Positions 52,596-63,446 of a DNA stretch of 64,000 nucleotides are shown here, in pieces. The notes below the pieces were generated by a model. That model was not told where the DNA came from. It did no database searches and was given only the letters and a program-made list of their open reading frames with translations. The position numbers were made by a program, and so were the translations under genes. This DNA comes from a virus. The stretch's first letter is position 1. The number at the start of each line of letters is the position of its first letter. Location: IMG/VR virus record IMGVR_UViG_3300031603_000001, positions 64,001-128,000 of that record. One strand, 5' to 3'.

Positions 52596-52767
52596 GTGAA
52601 CGGCGAGGAACTCTAGATATACTTCGGGGAACATAAGTACCCTTTTCAATCCAGAATCCCTCTGACGGGTCTCGAACCCGTAACCAGAAGCTGACGTACG
52701 ATAATCCACGGCGCGATGCCGCAACGACCGTACACTTCCGCTCTGCCAATTGAGCTACTGTGTTCAC
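52596..52767 (-). ncRNA. tRNA-scaffold RNA 1 (expanded anticodon arm, insertion in acceptor stem)
   Basis: TAGCTC-AATTGGCA-GAGC D arm; ACGGG-TTCGAGA-CCCGT T arm; terminal GTGAAC/GTTCAC pairing. Confidence 0.7.
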
Positions 52768-52772
52768 AATAG

Positions 52773-52877
52773 GGGAGGAAGGCGGACTCGAACCACCAAC
52801 CGGGAATGATTGTACGTAAAGATAGTCGCAATGACTATCCGAGGTACATCCTGCTCTGCCAGTTGAGCTATACCTCC
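52773..52877 (-). ncRNA. tRNA-scaffold RNA 2 (long hairpin replacing the anticodon loop)
   Basis: Acceptor GGAGGTA/TTCCTCC, canonical D and T arms, 38-nt insert in the anticodon stem. Confidence 0.8.
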
Positions 52878-53014
52878 ATTAAGTGTCTATTTAGTTCCAG
52901 ACGGGAGTGCGAACATAACTATACCCCTTTCCGTCATTGTTTTGCAAATGACCTCGTCGAAATCTTTCTCTAAACTTCTTCTTAATACCCTTACACCTAG
53001 GGCCGGGTAAATCT

Positions 53015-53083
53015 TGGAGAGGAAGCAGGGTCAAACCTGCAACCAGGCGAAATGCCCGCTCTGCCTATTGAGCTGTACCCCTC
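53015..53083 (-). ncRNA. tRNA-scaffold RNA 3 (truncated anticodon arm)
   Basis: Acceptor AGGGGTA/TTCCTCT followed by CCA; D arm; GGC-ATTTC-GCC mini-arm; 6-nt T loop. Confidence 0.7.
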
Positions 53084-53214
53084 AACTCGTAGTCTCGCAT
53101 CAGACGGTTAAAAACCCTCAGATGCTTGATTTCGAATTCCTCCCAAAGGAGGCAATAAACCTATTAAAATGGCTTTAATATACTACCAATCGTTATACGG
53201 GGCTTAGTAAGAGT

Positions 53215-53400
53215 TTAAATAGTAAACTCTTTATAAGAAGCCTCTGTTTCATATGTTACGTACCATTCAGTTACAGTGCTGTTAACAGTCTTTGATCTAA
53301 CCTCTGTGACCTTAAAAGGATGTTTATCATTAGCATGATAACAACCGGTCATTAAAATTATCACACTAAGCGGTACTAGTAGTTTCTTCAGTTTCTTCAT
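53215..53400 (-). CDS. putative lipoprotein
   Basis: MKKLKK + hydrophobic stretch + LMTG-C lipobox. Confidence 0.65.
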   Translation of the reverse strand: MKKLKKLLVPLSVIILMTGCYHANDKHPFKVTEVRSKTVNSTVTEWYVTYETEASYKEFTI

Positions 53401-53722
53401 TAACCTTTTCCTTTACTACAGTGAATTTGCCGTCTTTCTCTTCAATGAAGATTTTTCCACTAGTTTCTGCTGTAACTGTACCATCTAAAACCTCTTTCAT
53501 GTTTAAGAGGGTAGCCTGGCTCATGACGTAATTTATGACATGCACCTGCTTCCGGTCCAGTACAGTCTCGTCACCAATTCCTTTATAACGAGACTTCCAC
53601 GTAACCATAGGGAGGCGCTCACTCTCAGAGAGTTTGCCTTCGAGGGTCACTACGTTTCCCTCTTTATCCGTAATGGTTATCTTCTCATAGAAGAACATCA
53701 TACGCCTTGGTACAAATCCCAA
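53366..53722 (-). CDS. hypothetical protein
   Basis: 118-aa ORF, start uncertain. Confidence 0.6.
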   Translation of the reverse strand: MGFVPRRMMFFYEKITITDKEGNVVTLEGKLSESERLPMVTWKSRYKGIGDETVLDRKQVHVINYVMSQATLLNMKEVLDGTVTAETSGKIFIEEKDGKFTVVKEKVNEETEETTSTA

Positions 53723-54261
53723 GTTGCGCCACAGCCGTGCAGCTGTACTACCATTGCAGCTAATGCCTCAGGAATAGTATCCATAGTTGCAGATAGATGC
53801 CATTTGTTACAAGTCACCGTGACATTAGTATTATCAGGACGATTCCCCACGAACACATTAATAACTGGAAGATATTCCATCAATTCCACTACTGTGTACA
53901 CCGGGATAGCCTGAGTAATCAGACCAGCCACTTTCTCGGCATCATGCCTCGTAATAGGATCCCATAGATCACCGGATCCGGGTCTAGGAACATACACGAA
54001 GTACGAGTCCTTAGCATTAGGCATTATACGTGCAAGACTTTTAGCTTCGCTTACACCTCCGGCCGTCATGTGATAGATAGCACTGCCCAGGGATTCCACC
54101 TGTACCGCTGTGCTCATAGCCTGGCGTAAGCCAGTGAGTATAGCTAACTTAAGATGATATTCCTCGTATTCATCTCCGAACGCTTTCGACATAGTCTCAT
54201 AAAGATCTACAACCTTGTCAGCCAGTTCGCTGGCTTCTTGTATCAGTTTGTTATTATCCAC
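53698..54261 (-). CDS. hypothetical protein
   Basis: 187 aa, AGGAG ribosome-binding site with GTG start. Confidence 0.65.
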   Translation of the reverse strand: MDNNKLIQEASELADKVVDLYETMSKAFGDEYEEYHLKLAILTGLRQAMSTAVQVESLGSAIYHMTAGGVSEAKSLARIMPNAKDSYFVYVPRPGSGDLWDPITRHDAEKVAGLITQAIPVYTVVELMEYLPVINVFVGNRPDNTNVTVTCNKWHLSATMDTIPEALAAMVVQLHGCGATWDLYQGV

Positions 54262-54286
54262 GATGATACTCCTGTATCTAAATTTT

Positions 54287-54378
54287 GATCCAAGGGGAGA
54301 GTCGAACTCACCGACCGGCGTCTACGACGCTGCTCTGCCACAATGGTCAGCTGATGCCATCACTGAGCTACTTGGATC
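54287..54378 (-). ncRNA. tRNA-scaffold RNA 4 (hairpin inserted in D loop, 3-nt anticodon loop)
   Basis: Perfect 8-bp acceptor GATCCAAG/CTTGGATC; GCTC/GAGC; GCGTC-GTA-GACGC; TTCGACT T loop. Confidence 0.75.
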
Positions 54379-54646
54379 GACGGGACGTGACCATAGGTCG
54401 GCCCCCGAAGTTTCTAGGAACCGGGTTTAGGTTCTTAGTACTCTTTGGGACTTCATCATCCGTCATGACGTTAGAGACCTCTGCATACTGCAACCGCAGT
54501 TCTGTACCAGCATGCCTCTTACGTGAATTCTTTAAAGCCGCGAGAGCTGTGCCTCTATTGAAGCCATACACCTTCTTAAGATGCCATACCCCTACATGTT
54601 TCATTTCAATCCAGTACACTTTGCTTGAATGAGCCTCGATTATCAT
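54368..54646 (-). CDS. hypothetical protein
   Basis: 92 aa; the 3' end overlaps tRNA-scaffold RNA 4. Confidence 0.5.
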   Translation of the reverse strand: MIIEAHSSKVYWIEMKHVGVWHLKKVYGFNRGTALAALKNSRKRHAGTELRLQYAEVSNVMTDDEVPKSTKNLNPVPRNFGGRPMVTSRRSK

Positions 54647-55217: not shown

Positions 55218-55495
55218 TCCATTCCATTTGATTTAATAGAGGCTATGCCATGTAGGCATGCGACTGCTACGTCCGTGAGCTCTTTCTCGACATTGTCGAT
55301 ATCATTGCTCTTGACGGTGTCTACGAGTTCATAGAACTCTTCAGTGACTATGCCTAAGATTTCGTGAGAGGACGCACAGATGTGCGGTCCCTTCTCCTGG
55401 AGCCTGCGGATCCACTCTTCGTAGATCTTCTTATGTGTTTCATTTATTAAACGAGGGGTAACTTCAGGACGTTCCATTAGTATCTTCCTTATCAC
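55211..55495 (-). CDS. MazG-like NTP pyrophosphohydrolase-fold protein
   Basis: EEFYEL...EKELTDVAVAC all-helical pattern. Confidence 0.7.
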   Translation of the reverse strand: MIRKILMERPEVTPRLINETHKKIYEEWIRRLQEKGPHICASSHEILGIVTEEFYELVDTVKSNDIDNVEKELTDVAVACLHGIASIKSNGMDW

Positions 55496-56198
55496 AGTTA
55501 ACTAGGGGATCGATGATAGCATCGAGTATCTCGAACCGTGGTTTAATGTCGACACGTTGTATGATAGTCGACCTTACGAACTTAGTAATATAAGTCCCAT
55601 TCTTTCCCCGTTCGGAGATATCATGGGCCCATCGTAAGCCCTTGTCATGTAACATATCGTGCATAGCCTCTTGGTTCTTACCATGCAATTGCTTCTGAGA
55701 GTAATTAGCCTGGGCGTACATCTGTACAGAATTACGTTCCCAGTCTTTAGCTCTCCATAGGAAGTAATTAGTAACTTCTTCCCGCGGTACATTGAACGCA
55801 CGTGCATCGAAGCATGCTATTTTACCATTATCAATGTTTTCATAGGCTTCTTTAGCAAAGTAGGCAGTCATCATACTGGCTAGTACAGACTCGATCTTAT
55901 TCTGAACATATCCAAAATAAGCATCAGTATCGTGAGTAGCATAATCTGTTAACAGAATAGATACTTCATCACTTTGTACGAAAGCGAGTTGAAATCCCTG
56001 GATTTGTCTACACATGTTTTGCGCAGCAATAGCCATTGAACTCATAAATGGTTCATGGAACATTGGCATACCTCTGGTGTACGAGTGGAATGCTTTTCCA
56101 TCTAATCTGACGATAACAGGCATCCTACGAATAAGCTTGTGTTTTGCACGCTTCTCGTAGTTCTCCTTCATACGATCGCCAAGGCCTGTCTTATCCAA
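55464..56198 (-). CDS. thg1: Thg1-like tRNA(His) guanylyltransferase / 3'-5' polymerase
   Basis: VRLDGKAFHSYT, FVQSDEVSILL, FDARAFNVP, NYFLWRAKD..RNS. Confidence 0.92.
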   Translation of the reverse strand: MDKTGLGDRMKENYEKRAKHKLIRRMPVIVRLDGKAFHSYTRGMPMFHEPFMSSMAIAAQNMCRQIQGFQLAFVQSDEVSILLTDYATHDTDAYFGYVQNKIESVLASMMTAYFAKEAYENIDNGKIACFDARAFNVPREEVTNYFLWRAKDWERNSVQMYAQANYSQKQLHGKNQEAMHDMLHDKGLRWAHDISERGKNGTYITKFVRSTIIQRVDIKPRFEILDAIIDPLVNCDKEDTNGTS

Positions 56199-61100: not shown

Positions 61101-61231
61101 TATGAGCGACCGGATTCGAACTGGCGCACCTAGCTTAGATTATAGTGTGAGGTAGGTACCGTAATTCACACCTCTTACTAGTATATGACCGGGATTATGT
61201 TCCCGCGCTCTACCAATTGAGCTACACTCAC
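61101..61231 (-). ncRNA. tRNA-Met(CAT)-like RNA with 6-nt anticodon loop and ~60-nt variable-region insert
   Basis: GTGAGTG/CGCTCAT; GCTC/GAGC; CGGGA-ACATAA-TCCCG; TTCGAAT. Confidence 0.75.
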
Positions 61232-62169: not shown

Positions 62170-62304
62170 GAACCTTTCGGTAACCTCCGATACTTCACTT
62201 TATAGGCGTCCTATCCGCTAGACGACCGGCCCCTGGGGGACCAGGCGAGATTTGAACTCGCGTTTCCTCCTTGATATGGTAGTTAGGGTTTGCTGTGAGG
62301 TTTA
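62170..62304 (-). ncRNA. circularly permuted tRNA-like RNA B (YrlA/Y-RNA-like)
   Basis: Order T arm, CTGGTCC-CCCAG-GGGCCGG closed acceptor stem, D arm; flanks AAACCTCACAGCAAAC and GAGGTTACCGAAAGGTTC. Confidence 0.8.
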
Positions 62305-63307: not shown

Positions 63308-63446
63308 GAACCTTGCGGTAACCTCTAGGTAACTCTCGTGCTCTAACCAACTGAGCTACTCCCCTATGTTTTGCAGGGGAGACTGGATTCGAACCAGTGA
63401 CCGCGTCATTTGGAGTGATTAGTTTGTTTGTTTGCTGTAAGGTTTC
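63308..63446 (-). ncRNA. circularly permuted tRNA-like RNA A (YrlA/Y-RNA-like)
   Basis: Order T arm ACTGG-TTCGAAT-CCAGT, CTCCCCT-9nt-AGGGGAG, D arm GCTC-AGTTGGTTA-GAGC; flanks AAACCTTACAGCAAAC and GAGGTTACCGCAAGGTTC. Confidence 0.8.

Follow-up and report, generated by a model that had tools for sequence, protein, structure and literature searches.

A family of four transfer RNA (tRNA)-derived genes that keep a tRNA body and have no normal anticodon loop, here called RNAs 1-4, was found on the minus strand of the genome of an uncultured phage. The window, i.e. the whole stretch of DNA that was analysed, comprises 64,000 nucleotides (nt), bases 64001-128000 of a 197,958-bp IMG/VR phage record that was judged complete. 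The preferred reading, to which a probability of about 0.5 is given, is that RNAs 1-4 are selected, non-decoding mimics of the tRNA body that bind proteins recognising tRNA by its shape. It builds on the anatomy of the RNAs, their paralogy, compensatory changes in their stems and their inability to decode. Positions marked G000 refer to the whole phage genome and all others to the window.

52657..52764, minus strand: RNA1, with a D arm, a 52-nt extended 'anticodon' arm (52687-52738) and a T arm (52665-52681), without an acceptor stem
52773..52877, minus strand: RNA2, a full cloverleaf body with a U6.U67 mismatch and a 49-nt extended arm (52803-52851)
53015..53082, minus strand: RNA3, a cloverleaf body with an 11-nt mini arm, GGC-AUUUC-GCC (53046-53056)
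54287..54378, minus strand: RNA4, with a hairpin insert in the D loop (54336-54364) and a 13-nt arm, GCGUC-GUA-GACGC (54318-54330)

Anatomy of the four RNAs

All four RNAs have, in the minus-strand sequence, a GCUC/GAGC D stem, a D loop ending in GGCA, a YGGUY variable loop and a T arm, as described in the initial annotation. Its statement that a 7-nt anticodon loop is missing throughout also holds (0/4), the region being expanded in RNAs 1 and 2 and collapsed in RNAs 3 and 4, and pair counts agree with it that RNA2 and RNA3 have the U6.U67 mismatch in common. The loops in the anticodon region measure 42 nt in RNA1, ~38 nt in RNA2, 5 nt in RNA3 and 3 nt in RNA4. The canonical set of elbow positions (G18 G19, the T loop U54 U55 C56 R57 A58 and the 15-48 pair) is present in RNAs 1, 2 and 4.

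U8 A9 of RNA1 are followed by GCUC-AAUUGGCA-GAGC, a 5-bp stem GAAGU/GCUUC around 42 nt, the variable loop UGGUU and the T arm ACGGG-UUCGAGA-CCCGU. RNA2 consists of the acceptor GGAGGUA/UUCCUCC (6/7 paired), GCUC-AACUGGCA-GAGC, the 49-nt arm, the variable loop CGGUU and the T arm GGUGG-UUCGAGU-CCGCC; the hairpin of its insert has a folding z of -3.2. The acceptor of RNA3 is AGGGGUA/UUCCUCU (6/7; A1-U72, G3.U70, U6.U67), with CCA encoded right after U72, and its body continues with C8, GCUC-AAUAGGCA-GAGC, the variable loop UGGUU and the T arm GCAGG-UUUGAC-CCUGC, where the loop is 6 nt long and has U at position 56. RNA4 has a fully paired acceptor, AUCCAAG/CUUGGAU (7/7), with a possible extra G-1:C73 pair, a GCUC/GAGC stem around a 29-nt D loop that includes a 22-nt hairpin insert, the variable loop CGGUC(G) and the T arm GUGAG-UUCGACU-CUCCC.

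Detection and chance level

The 198-kb genome was scanned for a tRNA skeleton with at least 6/7 acceptor pairs, a 4/4 D stem with GG, a T stem of at least 4/5 pairs with G-C as its closing pair and TTYRA as its loop, and a distance of 8-60 nt from the D stem to the T stem. The scan gave 15 matches, all on the minus strand and with RNAs 2, 3 and 4 among them, compared with a mean of 0.35 matches per genome in 20 shuffled genomes. RNAs 2-4 are far beyond chance.

Detection with ARAGORN and covariance models, named in the initial annotation as the way to check these genes, succeeded for RNA2 alone. At default settings ARAGORN reported 0/4. The Rfam tRNA model (RF00005) placed RNA2 above its gathering cut-off of 29 (36.1 bits) and RNA1 below it (26.3 bits, model positions 7-64 only), while RNA3 and RNA4 were unreported at E<=10. 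Because standard finders miss most of them (ARAGORN default 0/4, Rfam 1/4 above cut-off), genes of this type are probably under-annotated. A paper on anticodon-less phage tRNA mimics was not found in the literature search.

Family relationship and compensatory change

The motif GGCAGAGC in the context of a D arm is found only in RNAs 1-4 and in none of the normal tRNAs of the phage, and the four RNAs therefore form a family. Pairs were counted by script, since MAFFT did not align the four RNAs across the arm. Between RNA2 and RNA3, seven stem bases differ, in four pairs, and no pair is broken. Three of the changes are double compensations (G1-C72 to A1-U72, G50-C64 to C50-G64 and U51.G63 to A51-U63) and one is compatible with wobble pairing (A3-U70 to G3.U70). 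Seven random substitutions left all pairs unbroken in 0.04% of trials. The tertiary pair 15-48 covaries as well, being A-U in RNAs 1-3 and G-C in RNA4.

The long arms of RNA1 and RNA2 both start with GGA(AG)-UGUAC and end with CGUAC-(G/AA)-UCA. Each has a proximal helix, a bulge of 4-5 nt containing UCA on the 3' strand and a GUAC/GUAC helix. The distal helices are fully paired with unrelated sequences, GCGGC/GCCGU in one and GGAUAGUC/GACUAUCU in the other, and they are capped by C-AUCGC-G or C-AUUGC-G; the mini arm of RNA3 ends in C-AUUUC-G. The T stems of RNAs 1 and 2 have fully diverged, with the elaborate arm kept. From their shared base, bulge and loop, the two extended arms are homologous. 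The four GUAC motifs were also considered as target-site duplications; this was rejected, GUAC being self-complementary and simply helix-forming.

The D-arm region of RNA1 is 91% identical to the tRNA-Ala of the phage and its T-arm region 95% identical to the tRNA-Asp. From this likeness, the family probably arose within the phage's own tRNA cluster.

Decoding capacity

The description of the RNAs as non-decoding in the initial annotation is well supported. Judged by their loops of 5 and 3 nt, RNA3 and RNA4 are incapable of decoding, RNA1 is without an acceptor and RNA2 'splices' only to an implausible ACA. For each long arm, every 7-nt loop was constructed that combines the first k bases of the expanded loop with its last 7-k. 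RNA2 gave only UU-ACA-AU and RNA1 only GU-ACG-GA. By our own estimate, ~40% of random loops pass the Y32-U33-R37 test at some cut point.

RNAs 1 and 2 could alternatively be precursors with short hairpin introns, as in the Lak megaphage, which would be cut by protein and resealed by a ligase into decoding tRNAs. Introns in phage tRNA genes have been described (Devoto et al. 2019, PMC6784885), the inserts of ~31-35 nt are located in the anticodon loop, and the phage encodes an RNA ligase. With introns allowed, ARAGORN assigns RNA2 to Cys(ACA), with an intron of 31 nt, and for RNA1 a reading of xU-ACG-G, intron, A is available, which resembles the Arg(ACG) loop of the phage itself; some long-armed genes of other phages (see below) resolve cleanly, to UU-CAU-AA (L079) and UU-UGU-AA (L071). 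The products are nevertheless implausible, consisting of an ACA anticodon or of a duplicate Arg(ACG) with G32 and without an acceptor stem. Neither would fill a gap in the tRNA set of the phage, and the high pass rate of random loops takes weight from the readings. EndA-type endonuclease and RNase III were not found encoded in the phage, and introns have no application to RNAs 3 and 4. This explanation is considered very improbable. A bulge-helix-bulge reading of the arms was rejected, the geometry being non-canonical, the tRNAs of bacterial type (class II Tyr) and EndA not being found in the phage.

The same design in other phages

Pattern scans showed the same design in dozens of unrelated phage contigs. 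The short-arm scan of IMG/VR, in which the shared D and T signatures were spaced 9-16 nt apart, yielded 48 distinct phage genes. An acceptor of 7/7 and a T stem of 5/5 pairs are seen in 28 of them and an acceptor of 6/7 in eight more. In most of these genes a short hairpin replaces the anticodon arm, in several cases closed by tetraloops of the GNRA, UNCG or CUUG type. RNA3 and 33 of the short-arm genes, once aligned, fold into a short-armed cloverleaf, and compensatory changes are found at 14/19 pairs. Among related contigs the mini arm is unchanged and the T stem changed on both sides (L129/L161 vs L187). Five short-arm genes (L112, L123, L140, L149 and L159, IMG/VR) are near-identical and vary only in the mini arm, at its 5-nt loop (GUAUA, AUAUA, GCAUA, GUGUA).

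With the spacing of the two signatures set to 40-70 nt, the long-arm scan yielded ~40 genes that carry long inserts. A clean anticodon loop can be derived for some of them (L079 CAU, L071 UGU), which by their sequence look like intron-bearing tRNAs; for others it cannot. Genes of normal length with the same D/T signature number at least 120.

Genomic surroundings

The phage has ~25 normal tRNAs, all on the minus strand, as RNAs 1-4 are, and of bacterial type (e.g. a class II tRNA-Tyr). RNAs 1-3 are adjacent, within a single non-coding stretch of 674 nt in an otherwise densely coded genome, and all four genes sit between co-oriented open reading frames (ORFs). The gap of 106 nt that separates two ORFs is filled by RNA4, whose 3' end is followed by an AGGAG resembling a Shine-Dalgarno sequence and, at 26 nt, by a start codon. 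The ORFs neighbouring RNAs 1-4 gave no informative family or Atlas match. Other features of the region are as follows.

52918..52947, minus strand: sigma-70-like promoter match (TTGCAA, 18 nt, TATAGT) ~40 nt upstream of RNA2, from a consensus scan (9/12 positions)
54368-54646, minus strand: 92-codon ORF upstream of RNA4, its stop UAG being positions 8-10 of RNA4, with no visible ribosome-binding site
55464..56198, minus strand: Thg1-like gene (tRNA-His guanylyltransferase family) 1.1 kb upstream of RNA4 (PF04446, E=4e-22; PHROG 4717, E=2e-74)

The total count of sigma-70-like matches in the region is not above the shuffled expectation, and a repeated motif, AAAGGGGT, was dropped as a candidate phage promoter because its frequency is not above chance. 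The 92-codon ORF may not be a real gene.

The phage is without close kin in the collections searched. For the 187-aa ORF between RNA3 and RNA4, kin were not found in viral contigs or metagenomes; for the phage DNA polymerase none were found in viral contigs, and matches in cultured phages are <=26% identical. Kin of the Thg1-like protein are <=55% identical and not syntenic. The region of RNAs 1-4 gave no blastn match to GenBank phages and no short-blastn match to the fetched loci. One strain contig that is 99% identical (L195) covers only the far side of the Thg1-like gene.

Other tRNA-centred genes of the phage

Further along the genome the phage encodes an Rnl-type RNA ligase and, at G000 132398-133834, a DUF2828/DUF7788 Ro-like protein. 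A phage CCA enzyme was not found. A match to RtcB covers the first 42 positions only (46 bits; G000 138503-138625, minus strand) in an open frame of 78 codons. It could represent a fragment or a split gene; the 496-aa and 503-aa ORFs next to it gave no Pfam match.

The tRNA-His of the phage (G000 128736-128808, minus strand) has A73 with a genome-encoded G at -1 opposite. A73 in tRNA-His is the eukaryote-like arrangement, in which Thg1 adds G-1, and this tRNA may therefore be a substrate of the Thg1-like enzyme. Among 130 Thg1 loci there were four odd and 17 normal tRNAs, and nothing usable was obtained from these loci on a link between odd tRNA-like genes and Thg1-like genes. On an unrelated metagenome contig, a tRNA-shaped gene stands beside a Thg1-like gene (L265:8161-8292, plus strand), its acceptor being GUGGGUG and its D and T arms 84 nt apart.

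Permuted tRNA modules resembling YrlA are found at 62.2-63.4 kb of the window, at 63337-63405 and at ~62170-62302, both on the minus strand. They consist of a T arm, a closed acceptor hairpin CUCCCCU/AGGGGAG and then a D arm, and both RNAs begin with AACCYYACAGCAA; the YrlA model gives 34.7 bits, under its cut-off of 69.

At least four more odd tRNA-like genes are present elsewhere in the genome. A gene of 131 nt at 61101-61231 (minus strand; Rfam tRNA 35.2 bits) has normal acceptor, D and T arms with a single A52.C62 mismatch, a 6-nt loop ACAUAA (CAU-like) on a 5-bp stem, and a structured insert of ~62 nt at the position of the variable arm. Just past the end of the window, a tRNA-Gly(UCC) that is apparently decoding (G000 130188-130274, minus strand; Rfam 52.7 bits) has a D loop enlarged by an insert of 15 nt, which includes a GACA-GAAA-UGUC hairpin; a D-loop hairpin like that of RNA4 is therefore also found in a tRNA with a normal anticodon loop. 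The tRNA-shaped genes at G000 156390-156468 and 161387-161473 (both minus strand) have abnormal anticodon regions, one with a 6-bp stem and a 12-nt loop and the other with 34 nt between the D and T arms.

Proposed role

As tRNA-body mimics, the four paralogous genes would have arisen by duplication from tRNA genes and been kept for the acceptor-T minihelix and the D/T elbow, not for decoding. We infer that they are expressed, processed, bound by partners and used as decoys. Transcription would proceed along with the surrounding minus-strand genes, and RNAs 2-4 would be excised by host ribonuclease (RNase) P and 3'-end enzymes, because these enzymes read only the top half of a tRNA and the elbow; CCA would possibly be added by the host. 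Without a 7-nt anticodon loop the RNAs would read no codon and present no normal loop to anticodon nucleases, and they would act by occupying proteins that recognise tRNA by shape. With ~25 tRNAs, a Thg1-like enzyme, an RNA ligase and Y-like RNAs next to a Ro-like protein in one genome, the RNAs may serve as decoys, sponges or scaffolds. From the same context, the partners would most likely be host tRNA-directed defence nucleases or toxins (the RNAs being decoys) or the phage's own RNA-repair or surveillance proteins (the RNAs being cofactors). The rebuilt arm shared by RNAs 1 and 2, with the AUYKC pentaloop that they have in common with RNA3, may be an added binding site.

A wider and doubtful proposal is that phages of many lineages carry free-standing mimics of the tRNA body, with the anticodon absent or buried, which are excised like tRNAs and act as decoys or inhibitors of host immune proteins that read tRNA shape. 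The targets would be anticodon nucleases, toxins that modify the acceptor end and nucleases that amputate arms, and the present locus would be an elaborate case, given its four paralogues and its conserved add-on arm.

The purpose of tRNA genes in phages has been under debate for ~50 years (van den Berg et al. 2023, PMC10264068), and recent work links these genes to host nucleases that cut tRNA. In a tRNA body without decoding, the two functions of tRNA, 'shape' and 'decoding', are separated. If RNAs 1-4 are made and bound to defence or repair proteins, they would represent a new RNA-based form of counter-defence and a natural probe of shape-specific tRNA recognition.

Selection, decay and processing signals

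The initial annotation took the base-paired altered arms as a sign of selection rather than decay. This is supported for the shared body only, by the compensation between paralogues, the covariation at 15-48 and the homologous arm of RNAs 1 and 2; it is weakened by the defects carried by each copy, four of which had not been noted before. Several observations count against selected mimics. RNA1 is missing its acceptor, the putative strands AACACAG/CAGAGGG being paired at 3/7 positions, which is the chance level. RNA3 has C8 and a shortened 6-nt T loop in which U56 weakens the G19-C56 elbow pair, and RNA4 has a T-stem mismatch, U50.C64, besides the hairpin in its D loop. The triloop of RNA4 is obtainable by a single 4-nt deletion, and an RNase P cut of RNA4 would strip the stop codon from the ORF at 54368-54646, provided that this ORF is a real gene. 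Folding z-scores, at -1.2 to -2.5, are modest. The compensation in the stems could be older than the present forms and stem from ancestors that still worked as tRNAs. A pattern specific for the arm of RNAs 1 and 2 gave no match in viral contigs and no further copy in the genome or loci, and orthologues of RNAs 1-4 were not found in the collections searched, because the phage has no close kin there.

Much of this would be expected of decaying pseudogenes, i.e. duplicates that lost their anticodon loops by insertions and deletions and are drifting, with intact stems as a trace of past selection. No copy is free of lesions outside the anticodon arm, RNA3 and RNA4 are unreported by Rfam, one deletion suffices for the arm of RNA4, and orthologues by which conservation would be seen were not found. 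Drift does not readily account for the fact that 4/4 RNAs independently retain G18 G19, an unbroken D stem and an arm closed as a helix, nor for the same elaborate arm in RNAs 1 and 2 despite fully diverged T stems and distal helices. RNAs 1-3 moreover occupy 674 nt of non-coding sequence in a densely coded genome, and the design recurs in dozens of unrelated phages with 7/7 acceptors intact and, in several, tetraloops of the types GNRA, UNCG and CUUG. Decay is on balance unlikely. A further possibility is that the RNAs are cis-acting 'punctuation', tRNA-like processing or stability signals at which RNase P and RNase Z cut a polycistronic minus-strand transcript, the excised RNA having no job of its own. 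The position of 4/4 between co-oriented ORFs fits such signals, as does the narrow gap filled by RNA4 with AGGAG and a start codon close behind it; the enzymes need only the acceptor-T minihelix and the elbow, and an anticodon arm that is free to vary agrees with this. However, one signal would be enough where RNAs 1-3 stand together in one gap, RNA1 is without the acceptor stem that RNase P needs, the cut at RNA4 would leave the ORF before it without a stop codon, and the elaborate arm conserved between RNAs 1 and 2 is left unexplained. Punctuation is accordingly rated as distinctly unlikely, and selected mimics of the tRNA body are preferred.

Comparison with known systems

Canonical phage tRNAs counter defences that target tRNA, and altered anticodon loops have been proposed as an answer to host anticodon nucleases (van den Berg et al. 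2023, PMC10264068; Azam et al. 2024, PMC11555353). RNAs 1-4 resemble these in their origin from tRNA genes and their location in the tRNA gene cluster of a phage. Canonical tRNAs still decode, whereas the anticodon loop of RNAs 1-4 is absent or buried, and any benefit would therefore come from binding and not from replacement of cleaved tRNAs. The short introns in phage tRNA genes called 'enigmatic' by Devoto et al. (2019, PMC6784885) are likewise short structured inserts in the anticodon region, too small for self-splicing; in contrast to these, removal of the insert from RNA1 or RNA2 gives no sensible tRNA, and RNAs 3 and 4 have deletions instead of inserts. With t-elements and mitochondrial tRNA punctuation the RNAs share an acceptor-T minihelix and elbow without a working anticodon, and a place between co-transcribed genes, or in their own case between co-oriented ORFs. 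They differ in that three copies lie in one gap, one is without an acceptor stem and two have a conserved elaborate arm.

YrlA and other Y RNAs of bacteria and phages (RF02553) contain a non-decoding module that mimics tRNA; some are cut by RNase P and receive CCA, and they are present in phages (Chen et al. 2014, PMC4201824). The likeness to RNAs 1-4 lies in a phage-borne, non-decoding module with a T arm, a D arm and an acceptor-like stem. RNAs 1-4 differ in having the normal tRNA order instead of a circularly permuted one, free acceptor ends and no Ro-binding stem. A YrlA-like fold over the junction of RNA2 and RNA1 was tried and rejected, the best match being 25.2 bits against a cut-off of 69 with an acceptor hairpin that cannot form. 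Though RNAs 1-4 thus fall outside the YrlA family, its tRNA-like modules are their closest known relatives in function.

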